A stretch of 41,642 nucleotides of DNA from a virus. Taxonomy: Duplodnaviria > Caudoviricetes. Position numbers and translations under genes: made by a program. The DNA lies in the IMG/VR virus record IMGVR_UViG_3300027749_000208, positions 1-41,642 of that record; one strand, given 5' to 3'. Under the pieces are notes generated by a model that was given only the letters and a program-made list of their open reading frames with translations, did not search any database and was not told the DNA's origin. The number at the start of each line of letters is the position of its first letter. Within the stretch, counting starts at the first letter, position 1. This document shows positions 8,013-41,642 of the stretch, piece by piece.

Positions 8013-8383
8013 TAAGTGAGCAGGTCTATCTCGCTTGAGCGCGACTACTCTTTAAGCGCGGGGGCATACACAGCGCCCCCCCTCCTCGTTTAAACGCTGC
8101 CCGCATCGCAGCGCATGCAGCGCCAAGGTAGTTGAAAGTTAAACTACCTCATAAGTTACTCATTGGTAACATCGCTAAAACCAGTTAAAATCATGGGCGA
8201 CAGCGATTATGTGAAATCATGCAATGGCTAAAACCAGTATAAATCAATGCTTTCAGCGCCTTACTCGTGAGTAACTTAGCCATGGCGCATCTATTGGCGC
8301 TCAAGCCTTAGCCATGCCCGCCCCTAATCGGGGCACGAATTGAGGGCACAATTAGCCTTGTGAGCAGCACTTATGCAGGGTGC

Positions 8384-8412
8384 TTGATATTCCTACAGCA
8401 CGAGAGTATTCT
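8384..8412 (+). promoter_or_regulatory. Sigma70/SigA-type early promoter TTGATA-N17-TATTCT
   Basis: Near-consensus hexamers with a 17-bp spacer ~50 bp before the first early gene. Confidence 0.65.
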
Positions 8413-8460
8413 CCGCGTAGCGGGTTTAAACAGTAAGCCCCTCAACCGTAAGGACTGGCA

Positions 8461-9042
8461 ATGAATCGTGAACAATGGCTCAACGAGTTAGCGAATCAGG
8501 CCCTGCCTGTAATCGCTCGAACTCTCGATAGTTATGCTCAATTCCGCGAGGAGGAATCGGCTGTACGCCTCTCCTGTGGGTTCCCTGCTCAGCAAGGCAA
8601 GCGCAACAAGGTTGCAGCCTGCATAGTGCCTCCTACCGCCTCCGATGATTTCAGCGGGGAGATATTCGTATCCCCTACGATTTCGCAGGGCAACGAGGTT
8701 GCCCTCGCTGTGCTGCCCCTATTGTGCGCCACAGTGACAGGCGACTATCGCAAGGGCGCTGCCTATCGTGAGGCACTCAAGCGCAACCGTTTAAACGCTG
8801 CAAGCCTGCCTGCATGGGCTGCTGCAATCGTGTCAACCTTGCCCGCTTACCCTCACGCTGCAATCACGCTGCAGCCTCAAGATAAGCAGACTACCCGCCT
8901 CCTCAAGGTTGCCTGCTTAGGTGACCTAATGAATGGCGAACAGCATGCAGCCTACATTGTGCGAATCTCTCGCACTACCCTTGCCAATTATGGCAGCCCA
9001 ATCTGCCCACTATGTGGTGCAGCACTAGCGGAAGGAATCTGA
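8461..9042 (+). CDS. SprT-like (zincin-fold) phage protein with degenerate HExxH motif and C-terminal Zn ribbon
   Basis: Family motifs REQWL, VRLSCGFP, EIFVSP, YPHAA, KQTTRLLK, PICPLCG. The position expected for HExxH reads LPLLCA. Confidence 0.65.
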   Translation: MNREQWLNELANQALPVIARTLDSYAQFREEESAVRLSCGFPAQQGKRNKVAACIVPPTASDDFSGEIFVSPTISQGNEVALAVLPLLCATVTGDYRKGAAYREALKRNRLNAASLPAWAAAIVSTLPAYPHAAITLQPQDKQTTRLLKVACLGDLMNGEQHAAYIVRISRTTLANYGSPICPLCGAALAEGI

Positions 9043-9044
9043 CC

Positions 9045-9779
9045 ATGAGCGCAACCTACGGAATTGAACTAGAGATGAGCGACCTCTCAATCTCCTCAGC
9101 CCAAGCACGTTTAAACGCTATCGGCTTGAACTGGTCATGCAAGCCTGACGGTACCCGCGGGGTTACCGCGGAGGCTGTTAGCCCTATCCTTGCCTACACT
9201 GACCTAAGCGAGGGCAGCAAGGCAGCCCGCGCACTGGCTCAAGCAGGCGCAACAGTCAACAAGCAGACAGGCTTCCATGTGCACTTAGGCGCTGACCACT
9301 ACGGCCTAGAAGGTATCGCCCTCCTTGTGCAGAATTGGAATCTGGCTCATGAGACAATCGGGGCGCTTGTTGCACCCTCCCGTTTAAACAATCACTTCTG
9401 CAATTCTGTACCATTGAGTCAAATTGACTCATGGGTAGAGAATGTACGCGCAGGCAATATCCGCAACATGGGCAACGGAGGGCGCTACTACAGCCTCAAC
9501 CTTAACGCCTATGCAACGCATCGCACGGTGGAGGTTCGCCTACATCATGGCACGCTTAACGGTAGCAAGATTAAGGCATGGGCCGAGTTTTGCGGGGCCA
9601 TGGCTCAATTCTCCGCTGACGGGGGAATCCTAGATAGTCAATTCTCCAACATTGCAGACCGAGAGGGTGCCCGTTTAAACGCGGTACGAAATCTCCTAGA
9701 TATTCTCTCCGAGAATCATCTCGACATTGCAACAGCCTCTTATCTCAAGGGTAGAGCAGCAGACCTAAACGCCCGCTAA
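9045..9779 (+). CDS. Putative amidoligase (COOH-NH2 ligase, Amidoligase_2 family)
   Basis: YGIELE, PDGT, EAVSPIL, TGFHVH, RYYSLN, TVEVRLHHGTLN motifs; ATG 9045 after AAGGA SD. Confidence 0.88.
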   Translation: MSATYGIELEMSDLSISSAQARLNAIGLNWSCKPDGTRGVTAEAVSPILAYTDLSEGSKAARALAQAGATVNKQTGFHVHLGADHYGLEGIALLVQNWNLAHETIGALVAPSRLNNHFCNSVPLSQIDSWVENVRAGNIRNMGNGGRYYSLNLNAYATHRTVEVRLHHGTLNGSKIKAWAEFCGAMAQFSADGGILDSQFSNIADREGARLNAVRNLLDILSENHLDIATASYLKGRAADLNAR

Positions 9780-9786
9780 GCGGGCA

Positions 9787-9832
9787 GCCTGCCCCTAGTG
9801 GGTGAGCGAGGGTGCAATCCCCTCGGCAGGCA
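9787..9832 (+). ncRNA. tRNA-like mini-element (7-bp acceptor stem plus 5-bp T-arm, no anticodon arm)
   Basis: GCCTGCC(9787-93)/GGCAGGC(9825-31) plus discriminator A; GAGGG-TGCAATC-CCCTC T-arm; only 14 nt between the stems. Confidence 0.55.
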
Positions 9833-9899
9833 CTCATGGCGCAAGCCATGAACACGACAAGCACAACGCGAACTCGTGTTTAAACAGTAAGGACTGGAA

Positions 9900-9989
9900 A
9901 TGAATCTTTCAATCATAGACGGGCGCTCATTCTTAATCGTTGCAATCATTGCTGCCGTGTGGATTTGGTACTGGTGCGGTGAAAGATAA
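9900..9989 (+). CDS. Small membrane peptide (29 aa, MNLSIIDGRSFLIVAIIAAVWIWYWCGER)
   Basis: Manual translation; preceded by the AGGACTGG RBS motif; one hydrophobic helix. Confidence 0.55.
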   Translation: MNLSIIDGRSFLIVAIIAAVWIWYWCGER

Positions 9990-10155
9990 CGAATTGTTAT
10001 ACATCGTTGAAGGTGTAGACCCTAGCGGGCGCAAGTTCGCTGGGCTATACAACATCGAAGAAGCCCGCGACCTAGCGAGCGCTAATCGTTTAAACATAGT
10101 GCGTGACAGATACACGCATGCTGTGATACAATCAACTAATCAATCGAAAAGATAG
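9979..10155 (+). CDS. Hypothetical protein (GTG start, ~58 aa)
   Basis: In frame with track ORF 9940..10155; fills the gap in the early operon. Confidence 0.55.
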   Translation: MKDNELLYIVEGVDPSGRKFAGLYNIEEARDLASANRLNIVRDRYTHAVIQSTNQSKR

Positions 10156-10166
10156 GACTGGAAAAT

Positions 10167-10988
10167 ATGTGCGGAATTGCTGGATTTTGTTTAACGCCTG
10201 CCGAATGTGCAACCTCATTAGAGGTTAGCAACATGGCAGCACAGATGCTGCTTGATATTGAACACCGAGGCCAAGATGCCACTGGTGCATCATGGGTTAA
10301 CACTGGCACTAAGAAGCGGGCAATCTTAAAGCACGCTATCCCTGCCTCTCAATTCGTGCCAATCGTAGGCGATTACCTATGCGAGAACGCGCAGACTGCA
10401 ATCTTACACACAAGATACGCAACCAAAGGCAGCCCCAATAACCGCGACAATAATCACCCAATCGCACGGGGCAACATCGTGCTCACACATAACGGACACA
10501 TCAGCAATGACGATGAAGTGTTTAAACGCTTAGGTGTACAGCGCAACGCTCAAGTTGACAGCGAAGCAGCAGCAGCATTGCTTGCCTTCACTAGCAAGTA
10601 TCACCCCGCCGAAGTACTGGGCACTCTTAAGGGTGGCGCAGCCCTTGCATGGATTACATCTACAGATGCAGCAACGCTACATCTAGCACGCCTTGCCTCC
10701 TCTCCCTTGTGGGTAGGACAGACGACACGGGGTAGCCTTGTCTATGGCTCAACCTATGAAGTTATATTCAACGCAGCAATCATGCTCAATGACGACCTAT
10801 CATGGGAGTACGAAGTTGATAACGGAACTTATCTCAAGGTGCGTGACGGGCGCATCATCGAACACGAGACGTTTAAACCAGCACTCTCTGCCGTGTACAG
10901 CGTGGCATCGTGGCAAGATAAAAAGATAGACACGAGTTACAAAGCACGCGCACATCGCACAAGAATACAGGAACTACTGCCCTTCTAA
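10167..10988 (+). CDS. Class II (Ntn) glutamine amidotransferase
   Basis: N-terminal MCGIAG, HRGQDATG, HTRYAT, NNHP, HNGHISN, VDSE. Confidence 0.92.
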   Translation: MCGIAGFCLTPAECATSLEVSNMAAQMLLDIEHRGQDATGASWVNTGTKKRAILKHAIPASQFVPIVGDYLCENAQTAILHTRYATKGSPNNRDNNHPIARGNIVLTHNGHISNDDEVFKRLGVQRNAQVDSEAAAALLAFTSKYHPAEVLGTLKGGAALAWITSTDAATLHLARLASSPLWVGQTTRGSLVYGSTYEVIFNAAIMLNDDLSWEYEVDNGTYLKVRDGRIIEHETFKPALSAVYSVASWQDKKIDTSYKARAHRTRIQELLPF

Positions 10989-11001
10989 TCACTACAACAT
11001 C

Positions 11002-11030
11002 AACCCCTCGCAGAAATGCGGGGGGTTTTT
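11002..11030 (+). terminator. Intrinsic terminator
   Basis: AACCCCTCGCA-GAAA-TGCGGGGGGTT followed by a T-run. Confidence 0.85.
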
Positions 11031-11253
11031 GCTTGCCGCCAGGGGTTCGTTTCATTATGTGTTTAAACACATAGAGTTTATCTTCCCAGGCGGCTGACAT
11101 CTTGATGTTTAAACATGTGCCTGGTATGTTGCAAGCGGCTGCGTTTAAACAGAAAAAATAAATTAAAATCTTTTGAAATGTACTTGACCTGCATGTATCA
11201 GGCATGAGAAGATTCATCTATAGCAACCACGCTATACATAACAAAGGACTGAC

Positions 11254-11406
11254 ATGATTACTAACACAGATTTAATTGCGATAATCATCGCGCTAGTATC
11301 GGCTGGCTTAGTGCTTGCCATTGCACTACGAAAGAACTACTTACTGGAACAAGAGAACGCAAACCTCAAGCGCAGGATTAAGATTCTTAAGAAGGAGAAA
11401 GACTAA
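11254..11406 (+). CDS. Small membrane-anchored coiled-coil protein (50 aa, MITNTDLIAIIIALV...)
   Basis: Manual translation; AAGGACTGA RBS; TAATG coupling to the next gene. Confidence 0.7.
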   Translation: MITNTDLIAIIIALVSAGLVLAIALRKNYLLEQENANLKRRIKILKKEKD

Positions 11407-11591
11407 TGAGTACAGCAGGTAAAGCACAACAGCATGCAGTCAAAACTTTAGTAATGAAATACCGCACCGAGTACGAAGAACTATACCGCGCAGAAGTTAC
11501 GCGCCTTGGTGGAAACGTACGCCCTACAAAAGAACTACGAATTGCAAGACTCAAAGCACAGATAGAACAATTAGAAAGCGAAGGTGTTTAA
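11406..11591 (+). CDS. Hypothetical protein (61 aa)
   Basis: Coupled ORF with AAGGAG SD. Confidence 0.7.
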   Translation: MSTAGKAQQHAVKTLVMKYRTEYEELYRAEVTRLGGNVRPTKELRIARLKAQIEQLESEGV

Positions 11592-11593
11592 AC

Positions 11594-11866
11594 ATGAGTG
11601 TACATGCTGGTATCTACGCCGACAAAACTTACTCAGGCTGGCGCAACTATGAAACATGGAACTGTGCCCTATGGATTAACAACGACTATAAACTATACAT
11701 CTCTGCTTGTGCTTTCATGCAGGGATACAAAGGCAAGACACCTTACAAGACATGGATAAAGATTGCTGACCTAGAAGGCAAGCAAACTATAGACGGCGCA
11801 CGCTGGAGTGGTAAGAAACTATCTTACACTCAACTCAATAACATGATGAAAGAACTAGTGGAATAA
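11594..11866 (+). CDS. Conserved phage hypothetical protein (Y.GW.NYETWN.ALW family)
   Basis: YSGWRNYETWNCALWINND motif common in phage early genes. Confidence 0.7.
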   Translation: MSVHAGIYADKTYSGWRNYETWNCALWINNDYKLYISACAFMQGYKGKTPYKTWIKIADLEGKQTIDGARWSGKKLSYTQLNNMMKELVE

Positions 11867-12240
11867 TGAAACACCCAGAAGTTAAAGGCGTAGTGTTATT
11901 TACAGATGGCACTCACGAGGAACGCACGTTTAAACAACTCAAGGACTACCAAGATGCAGTCGGTGGACTCATTGAAATCGTAAAGTTATACGATGCAGCG
12001 GGCAAAGACTTAGCCACGGCCTATGTAAATGAGGAGGGGATTATGCTCAACCTACCGTTAAACGGATTCGGTGGTGCACTCTCTTTCATGCTGGGAAATA
12101 ACCCAATGCTAATGGGTAACATGATAGTAGTAGGCACCGATGATGGCGAGGGATATGACACAGACATAGACCTAATGCTATTGTCTTTCATTAAGCATGT
12201 GTTACCAACGAGTAAGGAATTAGAAGATGAATCTGTTTAA
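11866..12240 (+). CDS. DUF3846-like protein
   Basis: LKDYQDAVGGLIE...YVNEEG...LPLN...GNMIVVG pattern. Confidence 0.7.
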   Translation: MKHPEVKGVVLFTDGTHEERTFKQLKDYQDAVGGLIEIVKLYDAAGKDLATAYVNEEGIMLNLPLNGFGGALSFMLGNNPMLMGNMIVVGTDDGEGYDTDIDLMLLSFIKHVLPTSKELEDESV

Positions 12241-12670
12241 ACATATACACCCACATGCACGCATTTGGTTTATCACTGTACTAATTCTAATCGGAGTGTT
12301 GTTCGTGAACCCACGAGTGGAATATGTAATTCACCCACCTAAATCTCAGGTGCTTGCTTACTACACAAACGATTACCAACACTTCGCCATTGGCGAACTC
12401 ATCAAGCAGAACAAACTTGAGCAGTACCCATGCCTCTATGAACTATGGCAACGAGAGAGCAACTGGCGACCCGCTGCCGTTAACAAGAGAAGCAAAGCCT
12501 CAGGTATTGCACAACTCATGCCCAACACATGGCAAATACTTAAGGTTAAGCCAACGAAAGATGGGTTTAAACAGGTAACAATCGGATTGAAATATATTGA
12601 CCGACACTACGGGAAAGACGGCGGAATATGCAGAGCATATGCACATCACCTAGCAATGGGGTGGTACTAA
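12227..12670 (+). CDS. Membrane-anchored lytic transglycosylase (SLT-like, actinobacterial type)
   Basis: N-terminal TM helix; LWQRESNW, ASGIAQ, GLKYI..HYG, C-terminal GWY. Confidence 0.85.
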   Translation: MNLFKHIHPHARIWFITVLILIGVLFVNPRVEYVIHPPKSQVLAYYTNDYQHFAIGELIKQNKLEQYPCLYELWQRESNWRPAAVNKRSKASGIAQLMPNTWQILKVKPTKDGFKQVTIGLKYIDRHYGKDGGICRAYAHHLAMGWY

Positions 12671-12858
12671 TGGCACCTACAAACTACAACACATTGAAAG
12701 ATGAGATTGTCTTTCACCTTATTCAAAGCGGATACACATTCTCATCAGAGAACGGCGACCCCGTGGTAATCAGACCAATGAAGGTAGCAGTGCTGCTAGA
12801 TTCAGTGCTTGACTACATGATAGGGGCTGGCTATGCAACCACAACGAAACTCTCCTAG
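12670..12858 (+). CDS. Hypothetical protein (62 aa, MAPTNYNTLK...)
   Basis: TAATG coupling with the SLT gene. Confidence 0.6.
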   Translation: MAPTNYNTLKDEIVFHLIQSGYTFSSENGDPVVIRPMKVAVLLDSVLDYMIGAGYATTTKLS

Positions 12859-13243
12859 CGTAAAGTTTATCCACATGCTCAGCAATATACCGAGAGCATA
12901 CAAGCCACAATTCCACAGAGTTATGAAGTCAAAGGTAATAAATGGCTTGACCTACTACCGTTTAAACTACAATGCTAAAGCCTTCGAAGGTGCAGCATGT
13001 GCTGGTGCCGATACGGAAATGTTCTACCCCGATAGCGTGCAATTCAGCAGAGAAGAAGCCCTGTTCTATGCCACATTATGTAGTGATTGCCCCGTCAAAG
13101 CAGCATGCTTGGAGTGGGCACTAGCCCACGAAAGGCAGGGTGTATGGGCAGGAACCTCACCCGAAACACGAACTGCCCTACGCAAACGCCTTAAGATAGG
13201 ACTCAAAGACCCAAACGATTACACCGACTCAGAGTTGCGGTAG
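12833..13243 (+). CDS. whiB: WhiB-family Fe-S transcription factor (start uncertain, may be downstream)
   Basis: AAC...EMFYP...LCSDCPVKAACLEWAL...GVWAG motif. Confidence 0.9.
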   Translation: MQPQRNSPSVKFIHMLSNIPRAYKPQFHRVMKSKVINGLTYYRLNYNAKAFEGAACAGADTEMFYPDSVQFSREEALFYATLCSDCPVKAACLEWALAHERQGVWAGTSPETRTALRKRLKIGLKDPNDYTDSELR

Positions 13244-13246
13244 TTG

Positions 13247-13255
13247 TGATAGAGT
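13247..13255 (+). promoter_or_regulatory. Extended -10 promoter TGnTAGAGT upstream of the candidate sRNA
   Basis: tg-a-tagagt lies 7-8 nt before the first hairpin. Confidence 0.45.
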
Positions 13256-13261
13256 AAGTGT

Positions 13262-13353
13262 TAGGTACTCAGCCCCACGAAGGGGAAGCGCGGGATTGAG
13301 TGCCCATAAAGAAGCCCCACCACAGGAACCAGTCCTCCTGTAAGTGGGGCTTC
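13262..13353 (+). ncRNA. Candidate two-hairpin small RNA; hairpin 2 may also terminate the converging - strand operon
   Basis: Hairpin 1: GGTACTCA...TGAGTGCC with loop AAGGGGAA. Hairpin 2: GAAGCCCCAC/GTGGGGCTTC plus ACAGGA/TCCTGT with loop ACCAGTCC. Confidence 0.5.
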
Positions 13354-13365
13354 GCTATGTTTAAA

Positions 13366-13908
13366 CTATAATTCCTTAGACTTAGCAAGCATGAATACTT
13401 CATCTGCTAAATCAGATAGTGAACCAGCGTTAAGGATTACATCATCAAAGCGCCAGTTATCCATCGCAGTTTCAGATGCATGTAAGTTAACTGGCTTATG
13501 ATTCTCACGCTGCACACGCCACACTTGCCCGCCCTTATCAACGATAGCCTGTGCCTCATTAGGAAAACGAACATCGTTGAAAACGATTCGCTCATCATTG
13601 GTTATCTGTTTAAACGCAATGTCTACCCAAAAAGATTCACCAAACATTTTTCGCCCAACTTCGGTACCAAATACTTGTAGCAATCTGCGTGCATCGGTAT
13701 CTTTCTTAGCCCACTCCCACCCATATACATCTACTGCTTCATCAAGGTACATCAAGCGAGATGAGTATGCCACTATCGGATTCAATGCTAACAAAGCCTT
13801 ACGCATAGGCTCAGCGAATGAACGGCGTTCGTATTCATAGTTAAGTAGCAATAGTTCTGCAACTGTATCTTTACCCGATTGTGCGTACCCACTCAAACCA
13901 ATTATCAT
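13366..13908 (-). CDS. Deoxynucleoside monophosphate kinase
   Basis: IIGLSGYAQSGKDT, SFAEP, RRLLQVFGTEVGR, DVRFPNE, HASE. Confidence 0.92.
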   Translation of the reverse strand: MIIGLSGYAQSGKDTVAELLLLNYEYERRSFAEPMRKALLALNPIVAYSSRLMYLDEAVDVYGWEWAKKDTDARRLLQVFGTEVGRKMFGESFWVDIAFKQITNDERIVFNDVRFPNEAQAIVDKGGQVWRVQRENHKPVNLHASETAMDNWRFDDVILNAGSLSDLADEVFMLAKSKEL

Positions 13909-13911
13909 TGA

Positions 13912-14034
13912 CTATAACCCCCACCAAATAGCGATTACAACTGGACCAAAGAACAACTCAACACATCTCAAACCATCATAGTAAGCAGCACCAACCATAA
14001 ACATGCGCCAATTAAACTCAAATACAAACTTCAT
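13912..14034 (-). CDS. Small hydrophobic protein (40 aa, MKFVFEFNW...)
   Basis: ATGA overlap with the sigma-like gene; AAGGAG SD. Confidence 0.5.
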   Translation of the reverse strand: MKFVFEFNWRMFMVGAAYYDGLRCVELFFGPVVIAIWWGL

Positions 14035-14705
14035 TCTTGCTCCTTTAATTCTGCCTGCGCTTGTGCGTTGGACTTGCGGTACCTTCTGTTGTTCCATATC
14101 GGTGCATCACCACCGAGTCTATCTTGTAACTTAGTAAGGGCACGACTAACACGCTTGCGTATGGCTTCCTCAGAGGCAGTGTATTCAATGGCTAATGCAT
14201 CGAAGTCAGTACCACCATCATCAAACCTGCGCTGGAGTAGTAACCTATCTGCATCGTTTAAACGCCTCAATGCCTGGGCCACATCAGAGAGCAGAGCAAG
14301 CCTATTGTTTCCTTCACTTGGCTTGGTACTTCTACTAATGAACTCACTATCGGCAGGTGTTGAGGACTGCACCCAATACTCATAGTGCCACACATCTTTG
14401 AGTAACTCTTGTAGTACCTCGTGTGTGTAGTAGAAAGAATCACTTGGACTTGACTTAGATTTATACGCTCGTTCTTTTGCTGCAAACTTTTGACCCTCGT
14501 TGTTAAAGGTACGGCGCAGTTTAAACACGAGGCTGTCTTGCGCTTCCCATTCTTCTATCTTGTGCCAGTGTTCCAATGCCCATACATTCAGGTGTTGATA
14601 CACATCATCAGAGGATACAATGTTGCGATGCACTCGCGCTGTGCGCTGGCTCGCCATCTTTGCTACCTTAAATATCTGGTCTAATAGTTCTTCTTTGTTA
14701 CTCAT
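14031..14705 (-). CDS. Sigma-70-family sigma factor-like protein (region 4 HTH)
   Basis: ALRRLNDADRLLLQRRF...DALA...SEEAIRKRVSRALTKL matches region 4; N-terminal DDVYQ helix is region 2-like. Confidence 0.75.
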   Translation of the reverse strand: MSNKEELLDQIFKVAKMASQRTARVHRNIVSSDDVYQHLNVWALEHWHKIEEWEAQDSLVFKLRRTFNNEGQKFAAKERAYKSKSSPSDSFYYTHEVLQELLKDVWHYEYWVQSSTPADSEFISRSTKPSEGNNRLALLSDVAQALRRLNDADRLLLQRRFDDGGTDFDALAIEYTASEEAIRKRVSRALTKLQDRLGGDAPIWNNRRYRKSNAQAQAELKEQE

Positions 14706-15087
14706 TGATTAACTTCCTCGTTGCTGTTAGTAAATCTTCTACCGTAATGAGGAAGCCCTTGCTTAAGTTTGGTGGTATCTCACATGTTATTTCCCTGCCA
14801 AAGTTCTCAACTGCATACTTAAGTGTTGGTGTTGTCACCATCACGACACTCTTTTCTAATACGAACGCCCAGTAGTCTGCCTCTGTTACGTTTAAACCCG
14901 AAGGTTGCCATGACATAGACTTCCTAAAGAAACACTCAACCTCAATGTAAAGGTTGTTAGTTTTCCACCACTTCCTATCACGCTTGACTTCAATAGTCCT
15001 ACCACCAGTGAGTAAGTCCTCAACAAGTTGCTCACCCTTGCGACCATATCCGAAGTCTAAATCAAATGATGAGCGATTAACCATCAC
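14698..15087 (-). CDS. PD-(D/E)XK-like nuclease-fold protein
   Basis: G.KGE...IEVKRD...NLYIE...SGL..T.ADYWAF pattern. Confidence 0.6.
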   Translation of the reverse strand: MMVNRSSFDLDFGYGRKGEQLVEDLLTGGRTIEVKRDRKWWKTNNLYIEVECFFRKSMSWQPSGLNVTEADYWAFVLEKSVVMVTTPTLKYAVENFGREITCEIPPNLSKGFLITVEDLLTATRKLINE

Positions 15088-20419: not shown

Positions 20420-20431
20420 GTTTCTCCTTCA

Positions 20432-20508
20432 ATAGAGGAGACTACTACACAATCTCTCCTCTATCGAGGTCTGTGCATAATTATTTTATCGGCGTGTCTC
20501 GGCGTGTC
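20432..20508. promoter_or_regulatory. Divergent control region: 10-bp inverted repeat ATAGAGGAGA/TCTCCTCTAT plus tandem TCGGCGTGTC x2 (GACAC boxes on - strand)
   Basis: Inverted repeat 20432-41/20455-64; direct repeats 20489-98 and 20499-508 at the strand switch. Confidence 0.55.
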
Positions 20509-20776
20509 GCACACAAATGTAGAAAAACCATGTAGTACACTCCTGTTCGTGCAGAGCAAGGGTGTATTGGCGAGGTTCCACCGAGCCAAACGAGTTAAGC
20601 AGAAGCCTAGCATAGACCTGCGAGGAATACCAAGCCATGCCTGTATATGTGGCTCATTGGTATTTAAAGTCAAGTGCATGTTTGAGGACAATAACATTTC
20701 GTTATGGTTTGTTGATGCAGAGTGCGACCAATGCGGAGCGTTGGTAACCGTGCCTACCCCAGTAGATGTGCTCTAA
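20504..20776 (+). CDS. Zinc-finger hypothetical protein (true start probably downstream)
   Basis: DLRGIPSHACICGS...ECDQCG...PTP. Confidence 0.65.
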   Translation: MSHTNVEKPCSTLLFVQSKGVLARFHRAKRVKQKPSIDLRGIPSHACICGSLVFKVKCMFEDNNISLWFVDAECDQCGALVTVPTPVDVL

Positions 20777-23082: not shown

Positions 23083-25116
23083 TTATACGACAGTACGGGC
23101 TACGACTTGGCAAATGCCTCCGAAGCCTGAGTAGTTGCGGGCGGATGGGGTTGCGCGAGTGAATGTAATCTGTTCGATAACACATTCGATAGGTTCTCCA
23201 CCAGCGGTGAAGTCCTGAATAACAATGGTTGCACCAATGCTTTCAACTGACTCAAGTGCAAACAATCTGTCACGAGCATAGCCTTCATAGCCTATTATGT
23301 TGCCAGTCTTATCAGTCTCTCTGTCATACATGAATAGTGGAATCTGTAGCACACGGGCACGAGTTGGTGAAGGTAAGGCTTTAACAGCAAGACCAACTAC
23401 AACAGGACCAGTAGTAGCATCAGTACTTCTTTGAAGTAACTCAACTGTAAATGCAGCATCTGGAGTTACACTTGGGTATGCATCAATCAAATCAATATCT
23501 GCAGCAGTTGTAGTATCTTCCGTAAATGTTTTAATAATAGTTTCAGAACCATCATAGGCAAGTTTGTATAGTTCAATGTCACCATTGGCTGTATCATTTA
23601 AGGTACGCACACGCACACGCTTCCATGCTTTATTTTCCATGGTGTCGTAGCGGATTTTACCTGAACGAATCGTGCCAGAATCAACTAAGTTAGTAGCATG
23701 TTCCATCCATATACCAGAGTTTTCAATAGCAAAGATAAGACGGCTTGGTGAATCAAAGATACGAACGGAACGCACTGTTCCAGTGATACCTTCGGCATAA
23801 ACATCGGTTGCGCGGGCATATACACCAGTTGAAATAGGCTGAGCGTACCCTGAAAGGGTAATAGGTTGACCTAGATTGATACGCATTGTTCCTGAGGCAG
23901 AGTTAACACCGTTGGTATTGGCTGCCCAAATGTAAGAGTCACGGCCTTCAAAGTCATAGACACCGTTCTCATTGTGAAATACCAATGGTCCGTATGTCAT
24001 GTCACCGTTTTGGTCTAGCGTTGCAATGCGAGCGCCCTTGTTTGAACCAACCATAAGGTATGTTCCAAGGTATGCATAGAGCGATAAGATAAGTTCGCCT
24101 CGTGGCATTACAGCAGCAGTAACAATAGTTCCTAGAACTCCTGCATTATCTACTTGTAATTTAAAGATAGTAGAGTGGTCACCTGCGTAACCACCAAGGT
24201 AGATTGCAGCAGAGCCTTCGGTTATGGCACTCCATGTCCATAGTACGGGCATGTTGACTGAACCATTGATAAGAGTTCCTGATGCTGCCACCATTGTTGT
24301 CTTAATATCAACGGCTGCGCCAGCACCTTTGCTGTTAAAGGTAAGTTCATATGCTGAGTAAGTTAAATCAGTAAACTTAAATGCAGCAACGATACGGCTT
24401 TTAACATACTTAAGAACCACATGGTCTGCTGTTAGACCATTGTAGGCATAATGTTTATGTGTTGTGCCATCAGATAGTTTGACATCGTAGATGCCAGCAG
24501 TTGTAGCCACATACATGTATGTACCATCTGAGGTAGTAGCAAGGACTGTTTCATTGTTAATAGAGGCATAGTTAACCAAGGCAGTAGAGACACCAGCGGT
24601 AGTAATCTTATACATGGCTGTAGTCTGTGTTGTGCGTACTGTCATATCTGTAGCAACGGCAAAGGCAACACCAGTAGAACTAGCACCCGTATCAACCTTG
24701 CACTTACCAGTAAAAGCCTGAACAAGTGTTGTCTTTTTAAGCAGAGTTAATTGGCCTGGAGTCCATACATCTACGCCATAAGAGTTATTGAAACGAAAGC
24801 GTACTTCGTTATCATTACCTTCCATTGGCTCTGTGTATTGGATACCTTCGCCATAGTGCCAAGAGGACTGGCTGCGTGTCCAATAGCCTGAGCCTGCAAG
24901 CGTATGCTCACCTGGGTCACGCATCTGGTCTACACGCTGAGCACGAAACTCTGCAGTCTGTCGCTTGTATGGTGTGTTGTCTGTTACTGCCATAATGAAT
25001 GGCAAACCAGCAATAGCAACATCGAAGGCATTAGCGTTTAAATCATAGTATGTGGATAGACGGCCCGATAAATCAATTATCGTGCGCTCGGTAATGTCAG
25101 GTGCTCTTGATACCAC
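23083..25116 (-). CDS. Tail protein (probable nozzle/tail tubular B-like, beta-rich)
   Basis: 677 aa beta-strand-rich protein in the tail module; role inferred from size and position. Confidence 0.6.
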   Translation of the reverse strand: MVSRAPDITERTIIDLSGRLSTYYDLNANAFDVAIAGLPFIMAVTDNTPYKRQTAEFRAQRVDQMRDPGEHTLAGSGYWTRSQSSWHYGEGIQYTEPMEGNDNEVRFRFNNSYGVDVWTPGQLTLLKKTTLVQAFTGKCKVDTGASSTGVAFAVATDMTVRTTQTTAMYKITTAGVSTALVNYASINNETVLATTSDGTYMYVATTAGIYDVKLSDGTTHKHYAYNGLTADHVVLKYVKSRIVAAFKFTDLTYSAYELTFNSKGAGAAVDIKTTMVAASGTLINGSVNMPVLWTWSAITEGSAAIYLGGYAGDHSTIFKLQVDNAGVLGTIVTAAVMPRGELILSLYAYLGTYLMVGSNKGARIATLDQNGDMTYGPLVFHNENGVYDFEGRDSYIWAANTNGVNSASGTMRINLGQPITLSGYAQPISTGVYARATDVYAEGITGTVRSVRIFDSPSRLIFAIENSGIWMEHATNLVDSGTIRSGKIRYDTMENKAWKRVRVRTLNDTANGDIELYKLAYDGSETIIKTFTEDTTTAADIDLIDAYPSVTPDAAFTVELLQRSTDATTGPVVVGLAVKALPSPTRARVLQIPLFMYDRETDKTGNIIGYEGYARDRLFALESVESIGATIVIQDFTAGGEPIECVIEQITFTRATPSARNYSGFGGICQVVARTVV

Positions 25117-33986: not shown

Positions 33987-34109
33987 CTACCTATCTCCCT
34001 TTTGTTGGTTGTATTCGCAATCCACAAACAAGGTTCGGGGAAACCAAGTTGGCTATTGCTACCAGTCTTGTACGCTCCTCAGGGCTGGTGGGTCTGAGTG
34101 AGGATTCTT
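33987..34109 (-). promoter_or_regulatory. Structured 5' leader of the scaffold/capsid genes (candidate pseudoknot plus hairpin with UUCCCC loop)
   Basis: Stem 34094-34102 pairs with 34075-34082; loop ACCAG (34085-89) can pair with CUGGU (34061-65); long hairpin GCAAU...GGUU-UCCCCG-AACC...AUUGC ahead of the SD. Confidence 0.5.
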
Positions 34110-37042: not shown

Positions 37043-37479
37043 TATTTTGCCTGCGCTTTTCTAACATCGGCTGCAACAGACTGATAGATAACATCAAGAT
37101 ATTTATTATCTTGCTTTATCTTATACTCTGGTGATGCAGTAATTGAATTGGTAAGGGCTTGTTGGCGACCATACATGCTTGTATCTTGTGACTGGCCCAT
37201 GATGAGATTGATTGCTTTTGAGTAATCGTTACCTGTGGCATTACGCCCAAGCATCTGTTGGTAAACAGTCTGTACTGCATAGTCTGCTTCTTGCTTTGTA
37301 AATACAGCCCCAGTTGTACCAGATGTTGTACCACCACCTGCTGCCTTAACTGCAGCAAATGCTGCTGCAAGGTCAAATGTTCCAGATGTCTTAGTCACTA
37401 CAGGTTTAGTTGTTACCGCTGGCGCTTTAACAGTGGTGTCACCCATTGCTGCTGCGCCTTTTTCTATAGGACTTGTCAT
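37042..37479 (-). CDS. Small internal virion protein (putative)
   Basis: 145 aa; YQQMLGR.A motif; coupled to neighbours. Confidence 0.6.
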   Translation of the reverse strand: MTSPIEKGAAAMGDTTVKAPAVTTKPVVTKTSGTFDLAAAFAAVKAAGGGTTSGTTGAVFTKQEADYAVQTVYQQMLGRNATGNDYSKAINLIMGQSQDTSMYGRQQALTNSITASPEYKIKQDNKYLDVIYQSVAADVRKAQAK

Positions 37480-40400
37480 TAGAGCACCACCGAATCATTT
37501 GCGAAGTAACGGTTAATAAATTGTTCAAACTCTGGACTACCATTGGTTAGTTCGTCCACAAACATTTTGTAAACTTGAGCAACATCTGTATTGCTTTTAG
37601 CACTTAGGCTTCCTGAGCCACCAGCGTTATTGCGCTCTGCAAGAATTGCAGCAAATTGTTTGCGACCATCAAGATAAGCAAGTGCTTGCTTGACAACTGC
37701 ACGGTCACCGTTCTGAGCCATCCACTTTTTGTCTTTAAAGACATTATCAAGGATTACTGCACGGCGCTCATACTTTGCTCTATCTGGGGAAGCATAGGCT
37801 GAGTACCAGTCAAGATTATCTTTCTTCATCTGGTCCAACCAGACAGATTTAATCTGCTTAATGATTCCAGCGTTAGGGTCATTGGCATCTGTGACACCAT
37901 TTTGCTTTTGGTATGCACTGATTTGACCCATTACATCTTGATACTGTGTCCACCCACGCTTGACGTTGGCTTCAATAAGGAGTTCGTTGGCTGTACGATT
38001 CTGACGGTATGTGCTACCACTGCCAGGTGTTGCACCATGCTTGTACTGCCATTGATAGGCAGCCTGTGAGAATGTGTATTGGTTATCACCATCATTAGCA
38101 AGGAAGCCTAGAAGTTCGCTATCACCTGAACTCTGAGCCATAGCCATAATGTTGCTAAACTTCTTAAGGTTACGCACAGTCTGAACGCTTGGCTCTAATC
38201 CGCCTTGGTTCTTTGACTGACTAATTGTAGCCTCAAAGAAATCTGGATACATTTGAAGAAACTTAGCATCTGCCATTCCAAGTACACGTTCACCAGTTTG
38301 TGGGTCGCGGTAGTCAGCATATTGCTGTTGGAACTGACGGTATGTTTGAGCGTAGAAGTCAACCTCAGGAGCCACGGCAAATGGTGCTGAGATAGAAGTC
38401 AAGGCACGAAGGAAGAAGAACTTATTAGTTCTATCTGTAATTTCCTGTACCGTTGGAGCGGTAGTGCGCTTGCCTTGGTTAAAGTTGTAAGTCTCATAGC
38501 GAAGCATCTGATTGTATGAGCGAACATACAAGTCATCTCTGCTCCACACAGTGCTCAAACGGCGCAGTGCGCTTGGTAGGAACAAGTCTGTTGCCTTCTG
38601 TGGCATACCCGCTGGGAAGAATACCTTGAGAGCATCTTCTAATTCAGGGCGTTCCTTAAGTATTAAGTACGCTGGAAGAACTGCGAATGGGCCAAAGCCT
38701 GGGTTACCTGGCTGGCCCTGTGTCACAACATCAAGGCTGTTTAGCGGAATGTTAATGTTCTTAAATGAATCTTGAACAATACCTTGCCATGACTTAGGCA
38801 GTGTGTCAATGAATCCTTGAGGTACACGCACTACAAGGTTAGCCATCTTGCCACCTTGTAACTGGTTTGCATCTGTGATGCGGTTACCATCTTGGTCAAT
38901 GATTGTTTGACCATGTACAACCTGTGCGATTGTACGGCCTGCTGTTGCGATAAGCGATGGGTCCTCCATCGCCATACCACCCCAACGGCGGATAGTGTTT
39001 TCGTAGGCTGCGTAAAAAGGAAAGAGTAGTTTAACTACACGGCTAGATGATGCACCACTACGGCGAACAATAGTGAACAAAGTCTTTTCAACTTCTTGGC
39101 GTGAAGTCTCACGGGCGTGAGTTACTGCACGGTTAAGTTCGTTAGCAGTAAGTCTTTCTTCACCCTTGACACGAGAAATAGCAGCGATGTTAAGTTTAAG
39201 TTGTTTGTCATACATGGCTGATGCCAATGGGTGACGAGCAAATACATCTTCTGGTAGTGAACCAAGGAAGCGCATAACACGGCGATTAACAGTGTCAATG
39301 ATACGCTCTTGGTCTTTGTATTCTTTAGATGTTACAACAAGTAAACCGTTAAGTGGTGTCAACTTCTCGGGAGCAGAGGCAAAGCGTTCTGTTAGGAACT
39401 GTTGAATCTGTCCACCTGAAAGTGGCTTGCCATCTTCTTTACCAGTACTAAGAATTACTGCTGTCTCATTATCTGGAATATAAGCCCTGACTCCACCACG
39501 AGTAATGTTTATCTTTTCAAGTAACTTCTCATCCATTTCACCGCTTGTTACTTTGTGGAAACCAAAGTACTTGCCAGGTTGAGTGTATGTTGAGTTAGCA
39601 TAGATGCTACCTTCGCGGGTATGAAACCACTCAAGGATTTTCTTGTCAGACTCGTTATCAAGAATCCTACGAACAACATCATCCATAACGCCTGTCTCAG
39701 GGTCGCGGAAGTGCATATTAAGAATGTTTGCCCAGCCTTCAAAGTAGCGTGGGTCAGTAGGCTGAATTAGGCGAACGCTGCGTGAGCCAATTCCTGTAAG
39801 GAAAGCCATCTCCTGATTAGATACTTGGTTGTTCCAAGTCTGCTCAGCAGAAGTACGCCCAAAGAACCATGATGCATCTTGATATGCCTTAGGTAATTCA
39901 TAGGACTGTCCACCAGCAGTAATTTGATGATAACCGTAACCAACGCGTTGTTTAACAGCATTAGTTTCTGCTACATCAATACGAGCACCAAGGCGAGTAA
40001 CTGCATCATCAAGTGCTGCAAGAGATGCAGCCTTGCTACGAGCAATGTTTGCAGCAGCATCTTCGATACCGTTGTTAATCATTGACTGTAAACCATCTTG
40101 TAGATAGTAAGGTGATATAGCGTTATCTCTAATGCCTGAGCGAGCACGCTTCTTGGAAGCACGGCTTGCAAGACGGCGTTCTGCTGGATTCATATTGGCA
40201 GCCTCAAAATCAACTGCAACATCTGCCATAGCCTGAGGCAATACACCTTCTTGAACTGACTTAAGGTATTGCTTTACCTGACGTTCACGGCCTGCTGAGC
40301 CAATAGCGCCAGGAAGAATAATGTGGCTTTGTCCAGCAGCACGCTTGTCATCTGAAACAACAAGACTTCCGTAGCCATTTTCTTTTGCCCAACGGCTAAC

Positions 40401-41642
40401 CGTATCGTCTGGGTTCTGCCAACCTTTTGTTTTAAGCCATGTATTAAAGTTGGAAGATTTGTCAGCAAATGCTTCTGTCTTAAGTTCTTCTGGCAAGTTG
40501 CGCCATGAACCAACAATATCTGCTGGTGTCATATCGCTTTTGCCTGCAGCAAACTCTGCTTGTGATTTCTTGGTAAGGGTTAAAGCCTTGCCATAAGAAC
40601 GAACCTGTGCTGTCTTACCTTCGTTGTAGCCAACGCGAAAGACTGGGCGGTGAGTCATGTTCTTGAAAAGTAATGTTTCTTCTTCGCCATTTTCGGCAGC
40701 AAGTACAAGGGTTTCAAAGTCAATAGCCTTGACTTTTTGCCAAGAGGCACCCTTCTTAATTTCAACTTTCTTACCTGCATTAACTGCATCAATCATATCT
40801 GATTGGAGTTTAATCATGGCTTCATTTTTAATATCAGTACGCTTAAGAGATACTTTTTGTTCTGGAAGTATTGCTTCAAGTTTTACAAGACGACCTTGAA
40901 CTGGCTTGCGGTCACGACTTTCAATACCTGGAGCAACGCCAATTTCTGAATCTTGTATTGAAACAACTTTAAACTTTACACCTGCTGGAAGTAGGACTTC
41001 TTGTTCTGAACCAACGCTAGTTGCTGTTTGGTCAATATTAAAGCCCTTATATGTTGCTTCAATATCTAAACCAGGGTGACCTTTCGGTACCTTGATTTCA
41101 AAAAGCGTTGGTTTAAATCCCCCGCTAGCACCAACAAATGCACTACTACTTGCAACATTTATATCTTTGCTTGTAGAAGTAAAGCCCTTTTCAGAAATTA
41201 CTTGTCCAACAGTTAAGTTTTCGTATGGCGTACCAGAGGCGGTAATGCCACGATAAACCGTTGTATTCTTATTAACAGTACTGCGTTGAACTGTGCGTTT
41301 TAATCCAGCAACCCATTCTTCGCCTTGCTTGTTTAAACCTTCTGGTAAGTAATCTTCATTAAAATAAAAACCACGAAGTTGTGACTGCTCAATACCAGCA
41401 ACACCAGTCACCCATGGGCGTACATACTTACTAAAATCTGCTTTTGGCATTTGTGCTACAACACCTGGAGTACCAATTTCGGCTCCTGGGGCAAGAGATG
41501 GCTTATCACCAATATGACCTGGGCGACCAGATGGAGTCTCAATGTACTGTTCTACTGAGTGGAATGTGCCACCCTTGGCGTAACGGTCAGCGATTGACTT
41601 AACCCCAGATGTAGAAAGAGAACGAGCCTCGTTAATGTCAAA
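37479..41642 (-). CDS. Giant internal virion protein, C-terminal part with cassette allele B (R-S-E ADP-ribosyltransferase domain at ~40950-41400); open to the right end (~2143 aa on the circle)
   Basis: Frame is open from 41642 (checked 41451-41516 manually; the rest equals 779-905). ART motifs TVYRG, GFTSTS, LFEI..P.G, EQEVLLP.G.KFKV. Confidence 0.88.
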   Translation of the reverse strand, partial: FDINEARSLSTSGVKSIADRYAKGGTFHSVEQYIETPSGRPGHIGDKPSLAPGAEIGTPGVVAQMPKADFSKYVRPWVTGVAGIEQSQLRGFYFNEDYLPEGLNKQGEEWVAGLKRTVQRSTVNKNTTVYRGITASGTPYENLTVGQVISEKGFTSTSKDINVASSSAFVGASGGFKPTLFEIKVPKGHPGLDIEATYKGFNIDQTATSVGSEQEVLLPAGVKFKVVSIQDSEIGVAPGIESRDRKPVQGRLVKLEAILPEQKVSLKRTDIKNEAMIKLQSDMIDAVNAGKKVEIKKGASWQKVKAIDFETLVLAAENGEEETLLFKNMTHRPVFRVGYNEGKTAQVRSYGKALTLTKKSQAEFAAGKSDMTPADIVGSWRNLPEELKTEAFADKSSNFNTWLKTKGWQNPDDTVSRWAKENGYGSLVVSDDKRAAGQSHIILPGAIGSAGRERQVKQYLKSVQEGVLPQAMADVAVDFEAANMNPAERRLASRASKKRARSGIRDNAISPYYLQDGLQSMINNGIEDAAANIARSKAASLAALDDAVTRLGARIDVAETNAVKQRVGYGYHQITAGGQSYELPKAYQDASWFFGRTSAEQTWNNQVSNQEMAFLTGIGSRSVRLIQPTDPRYFEGWANILNMHFRDPETGVMDDVVRRILDNESDKKILEWFHTREGSIYANSTYTQPGKYFGFHKVTSGEMDEKLLEKINITRGGVRAYIPDNETAVILSTGKEDGKPLSGGQIQQFLTERFASAPEKLTPLNGLLVVTSKEYKDQERIIDTVNRRVMRFLGSLPEDVFARHPLASAMYDKQLKLNIAAISRVKGEERLTANELNRAVTHARETSRQEVEKTLFTIVRRSGASSSRVVKLLFPFYAAYENTIRRWGGMAMEDPSLIATAGRTIAQVVHGQTIIDQDGNRITDANQLQGGKMANLVVRVPQGFIDTLPKSWQGIVQDSFKNINIPLNSLDVVTQGQPGNPGFGPFAVLPAYLILKERPELEDALKVFFPAGMPQKATDLFLPSALRRLSTVWSRDDLYVRSYNQMLRYETYNFNQGKRTTAPTVQEITDRTNKFFFLRALTSISAPFAVAPEVDFYAQTYRQFQQQYADYRDPQTGERVLGMADAKFLQMYPDFFEATISQSKNQGGLEPSVQTVRNLKKFSNIMAMAQSSGDSELLGFLANDGDNQYTFSQAAYQWQYKHGATPGSGSTYRQNRTANELLIEANVKRGWTQYQDVMGQISAYQKQNGVTDANDPNAGIIKQIKSVWLDQMKKDNLDWYSAYASPDRAKYERRAVILDNVFKDKKWMAQNGDRAVVKQALAYLDGRKQFAAILAERNNAGGSGSLSAKSNTDVAQVYKMFVDELTNGSPEFEQFINRYFANDSVVL

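Follow-up and report, generated by a model that had tools for sequence, protein, structure and literature searches.

The whiB-dNMP kinase intergenic region

The stretch of DNA analysed in this study (the window) is an entire virus record of 41,642 bases, whose ends appear to overlap each other. PHROG scans revealed (i) an early block on the + strand (positions 8461-13243), encoding an amidoligase, a glutamine amidotransferase, a transglycosylase and a WhiB-like protein, (ii) a replication block on the - strand, with genes for an exonuclease, a helicase, a primase, a sigma factor and a dNMP kinase, and (iii) the virion genes, also on the - strand. No tRNA or tmRNA was found in the window. The nearest major capsid proteins in GenBank are those of OX376640 and OX376641 (67%), and of Streptomyces phages, e.g. 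FlowerPower (about 50-53%). The first two records (LanE43-AprE7 and LanE43-AprF5) were taken, from the accessible part of PMC10202952, to be the cultured Planktophila phages E7 and F5 of that paper. Since the closest capsid relatives are Planktophila and Streptomyces phages, we infer that the host of the window phage is a freshwater actinobacterium.

The element studied here lies in the 122-base gap between whiB, whose likely start (judged from the starts in relatives) is at 12875, and the dNMP kinase gene (Table 1). The whiB/dNMP kinase region has no nucleotide match among GenBank phages. All of the positions given in the original prediction for the tags, the loops, the leader matches and the -10 sequence hold on checking, and its description of an extended -10 followed by two hairpins is confirmed.

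Table 1. Features of the window discussed in the text.
Feature	Position	Strand	Evidence
Tag AGGACTGG before first early gene, ATG 8461	8451..8458	+	
Tag AGGACTGG before 29-codon ORF, ATG 9900	9890..9897	+	
Tag AGGACTGG before glutamine amidotransferase gene, ATG 10167	10154..10161	+	
Tag AGGACTG before 50-codon ORF, ATG 11254	11245..11251	+	
whiB-like gene, end of early block, upstream of element	12833..13243	+	PHROG 472, E 1e-16
Extended -10 TGATAGAGT, predicted promoter of small RNA	13247..13255	+	TGnTAnnnT conserved
Predicted small RNA, about 95-100 nt, ends inferred	13262..13360	+	fold z = -6.1; covarying stems
Hairpin 1, loop AAGGGGAAG at 13280-13288, complement of scaffold-leader C-loop	13264..13304	+	
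Hairpin 2, loop ACCAGUCC at 13328-13335, antisense to early RBS tag	13305..13359	+	
dNMP kinase gene, last in converging replication operon	13366..13908	-	PHROG 139, E 3e-49
Scaffold-capsid operon leader, structured	33987..34107	-	covariation in 30 leaders
Leader P1	34102-34094 with 34082-34075	-	
Leader pseudoknot	34089-34085 with 34065-34061	-	
Leader long hairpin, loop UUUCCCCGAA	UUCCCC at 34042-34037	-	
Leader SD GGGAGA	33999-33994	-	

The motif TGnTAnnnT is located 5' of the first hairpin in 58 of 67 distinct sequence windows (row L032, anchored inside whiB, is scored as a miss), compared with 83 of 6271 background windows (1.3%). The whiB stop codon of the window phage is TAG, and therefore the TGA of the -10 motif is not a stop codon. 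None of 200 shuffled sequences was as stable as the two-hairpin fold of the element, and the loops AAGGGGAAG and ACCAGUCC are each unpaired with p > 0.8. The final T of CCAGTCCT and the CCUCCU that follows it sit in the stem, outside loop 2. No Rfam 15 family matched the element or the scaffold-capsid leader at its gathering score, and the Rfam search returned for 13305-13359 only a chance-level microRNA match.

The same gap, with variable stems and two recurrent loop-2 types, was found in 80 IMG/VR loci retrieved via the dNMP kinase. When these kinase loci were combined with a pattern scan and fetched genomes, hairpin 2 was present in 155 of 156 kinase-gene sequences (104 of class A, 49 of class B and 2 of class A'), the single exception being cut by a contig end. 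Double-sided changes occur at 14 of 23 consensus pairs in 40 two-hairpin copies, and the loops are fixed while the stems turn over among relatives; GGGGAAG is invariant in alignment A1, whose rows were selected by that very motif. Hairpin 1 favours the + strand (G-U 87 vs A-C 24; the + fold is better in 35/37). The + strand bias of hairpin 2 is weak (63 vs 38; 28/43), as expected if it terminates in both directions. These conservation and strand counts describe related sequences and not independent events. The conserved motif and the strand bias support the predicted + strand RNA with its own extended -10. Hairpin 2 is likely to act also as a bidirectional terminator between whiB and the dNMP kinase gene: it is placed between convergent genes, flanked by an A-tract and a U-tract, and contains a terminator-like match on the - strand (13330-13313).

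Three other regions of the window were noted. A 1323-aa protein of the virion region (37479-41450, - strand, running on at 1-218) has a weak ADP-ribosyltransferase-like PHROG match at residues 50-168 (E 5e-6). The intergenic region before the exonuclease gene (20420-20700), which has stretches in common with G009, contains a hairpin of -22 kcal/mol adjoining the RBS and is a possible middle promoter or leader. A GC-rich spacer with a strong fold (-45 kcal/mol) separates the amidoligase gene from the 29-codon ORF (9776-9850, + strand).

Loop 2 and the ribosome-binding tags of early genes

The exact reverse complement of AGGACTGG, the tag found before three early genes, is located at 13329-13336, within hairpin 2; a fourth + strand copy of the tag, at 24864, does not lie at a + strand start. 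The starts at 8461 and 9900 also have a longer repeated lead-in in common. In a blind scan for 8-mers that precede at least three start codons and have their complement in a strong hairpin loop, this hairpin was the sole match in the window; the 7-mer scan of the window returned it together with two others. GACTG occurs in 4 of 11 early initiation regions and in 0 of 33 others (Fisher p = 0.002). The predicted duplex spans the SD and the spacer, 1-5 nt before the AUG. Groupwise, early genes are not set apart from other genes by duplex energy, with p = 0.22 (loop plus stem), 0.056 (loop only) and 0.13 (a third probe), and with the CCUCCU of the stem in the probe several late genes score as high as early ones. 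The block of early translation in the earlier proposal would apply to the tagged genes, which are only a part of the early genes here. A further word, GTTTAAAC, occurs 37 times in the window genome-wide, is dense at 8088-14890 and often lies directly 5' of tags or start codons; it may be a host methylation or DNA-binding motif.

The prediction from sequence that early RBSs are the targets of loop 2 is well supported by relatives, in which a change of loop goes with a change of RBS tag; this is the covariation across related phages on which the original prediction was to be judged. Class A combines the loop UUCCAGUCC with the RBS tag GGACUGGA (GGACTGG or AGACTGG before early genes), and class B the loop UCUCUCCUGUC with the early-gene tag ACAGGAGA. 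Own loops scored 1.89 and 6.10 in classes A and B, respectively, and swapped loops 0.33 and 0.06. The amidotransferase gene, with its unambiguous Met-Cys start, is preceded by GACTGGA in each of the 16 distinct copies from class A; no copy of this gene was found in class B. The loop complement was the top start-proximal 7-mer (ties counted) in 15/34 genomes of class A, i.e. under half, 18/20 of class B, 18/22 of class C, 2/2 of class D, 5/5 of BF, 1/1 of K and 1/1 Planktophila phage, the A and B rankings being based on loci for which 3 kb or more of early DNA was available. The sense control averaged 0 to 0.32, and 1.0 in K.

On a quick protein tree of the sigma factor and dNMP kinase (69 rows), class B requires at least two changes. 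The two classes also differ in genome-wide word usage (GTTTAAAC: 37-57 copies in class A vs 1-3 in class B; TTAAGAC: 2-10 vs 25-48), and a comparison of their RBSs by orthologue yielded few tagged orthologues in common, with noisy start calls. Because of these word differences, the few common tagged orthologues and the linkage of the hairpin to the early block, the A/B switch is confounded with lineage. The recurrence of the match across lineages, loci and strands is the stronger argument.

In a distant clade, an extended -10 and a hairpin with the loop GGCUCUCUCCUUGU head the replication operon, and the genomes carry AAGGAGAG tags (ranked first in 18/22). An anti-RBS hairpin was also found in 18 further genomes of at least 30 kb, by the blind scan in 11 and by a directed search in the remaining 7. 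The loop CUAUCUCC is accompanied by 7, 6 and 7 sites of the tag AGGAGATA in its three genomes, compared with at most 3 in other genomes, and the loop GUGUCUCC by the tag AGGAGACA (5 sites in G028). The tail bases after GGAGA also track the loop. The match at the edge base is not perfect: of the 7 genomes with the loop UAGUCUCC, 4 hold more AGGAGACA than AGGAGACT, and G039 has 5 ACAGGAGA vs 3 ACAGGAGG. Only 0-1 tag sites were found in G036, G038 and G041.

Among relatives the hairpin changes locus and strand yet stays antisense to the tags. Further loop/tag pairs were identified in distant relatives, among them both cultured Planktophila phages and five BF phages of Streptomyces. In E7 and F5 the hairpin is on the strand opposite to the early genes, where 7 and 8 tagged starts are located, with 2 on the same strand; tags in these phages also precede two replication-operon genes. 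All five BF phages examined have a hairpin with the loop CUCUCUCCCC and covarying stems, directly after early genes tagged AAGGG(G)AGAG. The FlowerPower anti-RBS hairpin (L100:38036-38139, - strand; also L306-L309) lies between early genes 74 and 73, and on the hairpin strand of a BF phage all 9 of 9 GGGAGAGA sites are at start codons.

For the class A' loop, UUUCUAGUCC, the predicted tag is GGACUAG; the early genes of the two sequences (L147/L301) lie beyond the contig. A scan for this loop led to two chance matches and to an unrelated phage that combines the loop with matching RBSs (L302, L304). In this whiB-bearing phage (L302:6020-6170, L304) the intergenic RNA has three hairpins, and its loop GUUUCUAGUCCUUUC matches GAAAGGACTAGAAA starts on the other strand. 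Two further assemblies, G007 (76.6 kb; two different phages end to end) and G030 (two anti-RBS hairpins of differing classes), may be chimeric.

Loop 1 and the scaffold-capsid leader

The leader of the scaffold-capsid operon is a conserved, uncatalogued pseudoknotted RNA family. In an alignment of 30 copies, 95% of the cells are paired and double-sided changes occur at 13 of 23 pairs; the leader was found in about 970 stretches in IMG/VR. A conserved ATA(T/A)AA precedes it and may be a late promoter.

The original prediction connected this leader with both loops of the element, through GACTGGT (34067-61) and TTCCCC (34042-37), both on the - strand, the latter complementary to GGGGAA at 13282-87. 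The GACTGGT match alone is not beyond chance, because 8 copies of this word occur on the - strand. The CUGG of the leader covaries in cis with CCAG (CCAG/CUGG in 96 and CUAG/CUAG in 6 of 103). GACUGGU is kept by 0 of 11 class A relatives and is present in a class B genome, E7 and F5, i.e. in phages with a non-pairing loop. Among the 51 leaders near this phage it is present in 8, and among the 103 of a wider set in 64, with no relation to loop class; the covariation proposed between loop 2 and the leader was not borne out. The idea that loop 2 opens the leader pseudoknot was rejected.

Pairing between loop 1 and the leader C-loop is possible on the sequence evidence, at slightly below even odds, and activation of the scaffold gene through this pairing is more tentative. 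Of 30 genomes, 26 were found by script to have a GGGGAA-loop hairpin, and 28 when the limits were relaxed; one was recognized by eye in G013, and none was found in G028. Genomes without hairpin 1 beside whiB have the GGGGAA-loop hairpin elsewhere, usually just 5' of a terminator or in the replication operon. Of 204 GGGGAA sites, 35 (17%) are in a hairpin loop, compared with 1.4-7% for 12 non-overlapping permutations. The claim that one RNA does both can apply to no more than part of the family, the two hairpins often being at separate loci.

In the window, the duplex of the leader loop with the G-loop (-15.2 kcal/mol) is more favourable than that with its own SD (-9.8 kcal/mol), and the G-loop probe outpairs the own SD in 59 of 61 leaders. 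Leader loops pair better with their own SDs than with shuffled ones (2000 of 2000 shuffles beaten). The leader loop keeps four Cs, although its own SD has three Gs, and an A at -1 of the loop occurs only with GGGU SDs (6/6). The energies and the SD match fit an anti-SD loop that would be released by the G-loop. Against this reading, the loop and its own SD clash as U-U in 33 of 59 leaders. The cores of both loops are nearly invariant, and variant leaders (UACCCCUG) are not accompanied by a compensating change in the G-loop; strict covariation was not found. The capture of the anti-SD loop by loop 1 is a plausible prediction. No G-loop partner of the BF scaffold leader (loop UUCCCUA) was found in FlowerPower or in four partial BF genomes. 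In clade 2 (L221:7490-7560 and relatives) a GGGGAAG hairpin is embedded in the resolvase gene (read as codons AGG GGA AGY), where the motif is kept in most copies and lost in some.

Proposed function and relation to known systems

We propose that the element encodes a trans-acting antisense RNA directed at tagged early mRNAs, with a G-loop that may free the scaffold RBS, and assign to this reading as a whole a probability of about 0.7. Repression of the tagged early genes in trans is, by itself, probable. Transcription, pairing in the cell, the direction of the effect (repression) and its timing are all predictions. A small RNA of about 95 nt would be transcribed from its own extended -10 promoter, and its terminator loop (loop 2) would pair in trans with a private RBS tag on several early mRNAs; a duplex over the SD and the spacer would then block their translation. 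In the window phage the RNA follows whiB and could provide delayed negative feedback. Where relatives have the hairpin at the head of the replication operon, the RNA would be expected in the middle stage and would cause shut-off then. The C-loop of the leader is predicted to sequester the scaffold SD in cis; the G-loop, a separable second module, is predicted to outcompete the SD and may free the scaffold RBS.

A strictly cis-acting element, whose loop pairs with RBSs on its own transcript, is improbable. In the window this would involve pairing of the 3' end with upstream RBSs of the early polycistron, and in the replication-operon relatives a pseudoknot with the RBS of the next gene, i.e. 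two separate mechanisms would be required. Such pairing would suit the position of the hairpin at the end of the early block in the window, and in clade 2, E7, F5 and G043 the RBS of the gene that directly follows the hairpin matches in part or in full. The conserved promoter-like motif directly 5' of the hairpins argues against it, as do the tagged starts on the opposite strand in E7 and F5; moreover, the window has no following same-strand gene. CsrB and RsmZ, which titrate CsrA, are the model for a protein decoy. On the - strand, hairpin 2 displays the tag GGACUGGU in its loop and might titrate a tag-binding repressor or nuclease. Its terminator-like appearance on that strand, its weak strand bias and the CAGGA contained in class B tags would agree with such a role. 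This explanation is nevertheless very improbable, since hairpin 1 shows a strong + strand bias, the promoter-like motif of clades 1 and 2 is oriented along the antisense strand, and the specificity of the protein would need to change with every new tag.

It might also be argued that the RNA targets host mRNAs or is a generic anti-SD, the phage tags being merely strong SDs. The tags of classes B-E and K are indeed purine-rich, SD-like words, and the stem CCUCCU is what lets several late genes score like early ones. The class A tag GACUGG does not resemble an SD and is nevertheless tracked by the loop, and the tail bases after GGAGA track the loop as well; we consider that there is only a slim chance of this explanation being correct. 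Still less weight is given to the view that hairpin 2 simply terminates transcription in both directions and that its loop, left as a relic when an early-gene start cassette was inverted, matches the tags without any function. The convergent genes with their A-tract and U-tract flanks would fit it, as would the lead-in common to the starts at 8461 and 9900. A relic would not account for fixed loops on stems that turn over, nor for loops that track new tags in several lineages, also away from convergent ends. The trans-acting antisense RNA is thus the preferred reading.

C-rich loops serve as generic anti-SD seeds in several host sRNAs, e.g. RNAIII/RsaE, cuckoo/CcsR and actinobacterial 6C. The predicted RNA resembles these in having a single-stranded pyrimidine-rich loop as a seed against the SD regions of many mRNAs; unlike theirs, its seed is specific to the lineage and changes along with the tag of the phage itself. 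For the G-loop, the parallels are the anti-antisense activation of rpoS by DsrA and the scaffold autoregulation of P22, in that a trans factor is predicted to free a leader-held RBS and the supply of scaffold is controlled at translation. The trigger proposed here differs from both, as it is a 6-8 bp G/C loop-loop contact made by a phage RNA. As for the term riboswitch in trans, used in the original prediction, there was no Rfam match and nothing pointed to a ligand.

The element would work like the c4 and OppZ/CarZ RNAs, as these are described in the accessible parts of the sources, and probably belongs to neither group. The c4 antisense RNA of phages P1/P7 acts in trans through loop-displayed complements of sequences around a phage mRNA RBS (PMC12197685, PMC2864571, accessible parts). 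The element, too, is phage-encoded and displays in a loop the complement of a phage RBS region, as found by sequence and covariation. c4 targets the ant mRNA and functions in the immunity of temperate proteobacterial phages, whereas the RNA predicted here matches a tag repeated on many early genes and has a second loop directed toward a late leader. No match to C4 (RF01695) at the gathering score was found in the window, nor was any integrase, repressor or antirepressor detected among the 40 proteins scanned; the tags precede early metabolic and small genes.

OppZ and CarZ of Vibrio cholerae are autoregulatory 3'UTR-derived sRNAs, cut out by RNase E, that act on their own operon (PMC7398697, accessible part). 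Like them, the predicted RNA would, in the window, clade 1 and BF phages, derive from the 3' end of the operon whose initiation regions it is predicted to pair with; in clade 2, E7 and F5 it is located elsewhere. The predicted RNA differs in its predicted own promoter, its loop-borne seed, its several targets and its occurrence at sites away from them. The conserved promoter-like motif points to primary transcription rather than processing. There is also a precedent for terminator loops in regulation, which according to the accessible text of PMC11979758 likely operate there without base pairing. The element is not described in the accessible parts of PMC10690425 or PMC4351075, and five motifs were not found in 6 of the 9 supplementary files of the former; it may nevertheless be among the candidate RNAs of PMC10690425. 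No published account of the loop/tag RNA or of the G-loop link was found in a search that left most subscription journals outside.

A private, over-conserved RBS tag on non-structural genes is also a feature of Cluster K phages. According to the accessible part of PMC3203893, their 13-bp start-associated sequence (SAS) is present at the RBS of non-structural genes, a single opposite-orientation copy occurs in four K1 phages, and the question of whether an RNA or a protein binds SAS is posed and its partner left open. Start-associated sequences also occur in Cluster EF Microbacterium phages (PMC7302621, accessible part). The tags of the window are likewise confined to early RBSs, i.e. to non-structural genes; they differ in sequence and belong to unrelated phages, and the 13-bp consensus GGGATAGGAGCCC is absent from them (GGACTGG, ACAGGAGA and others). 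The reverse SAS copy of Anaya proved to form, on the mRNA strand, the loop of a hairpin between genes (L098:34830-34920; about 59830-59920 of the record), in a region found in 193 phage records and, over most of its length, in 136. The same loop, GCCUCCUAUCCC, is present on the mRNA strand in Amelie (L124:4100-4180) and in Omnicron, where it has a perfect stem near the left end (L128:1085-1165). No anti-SAS hairpin was found in the whole genomes of TM4, Ekdilam and Yuna, in the last 7 kb of Pixie, or between the genes of the Microbacterium phage AnnaSerena. Since 3 of the 7 Cluster K phages examined fit, the anti-SAS hairpin is a lead to an explanation of the SAS motif and not a rule.

Early-to-late control in lytic phages is usually credited to proteins, i.e. 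sigma factors, repressors and nucleases. Control by an RNA whose seed changes in step with a barcode carried by the early genes of the phage itself would be different in kind and programmable, and it directly suggests a hypothesis for the hitherto unexplained SAS motifs in actinobacteriophages. The link between the G-loop and the leader, if real, would represent a phage RNA that activates a late gene through loop-loop contact. Joined into one reading, these elements would define an actinophage family (freshwater, Planktophila and Streptomyces) with a two-address RNA code, in which an RBS barcode is silenced by a loop, a G-loop unlocks the pseudoknotted scaffold-capsid leader, and the same logic underlies some Cluster K SAS, open since 2011. 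This joint reading is rather unlikely; were it true, one 95-nt RNA in the window phage would turn early genes off and head assembly on. Anti-RBS hairpins are present in phages with laboratory hosts, namely the Streptomyces BF phages FlowerPower, Manuel, Immanuel3, Abafar and Kumquat, and the mycobacteriophages Anaya, Amelie and Omnicron. In the cultured Planktophila phages E7 and F5 all three parts are present.
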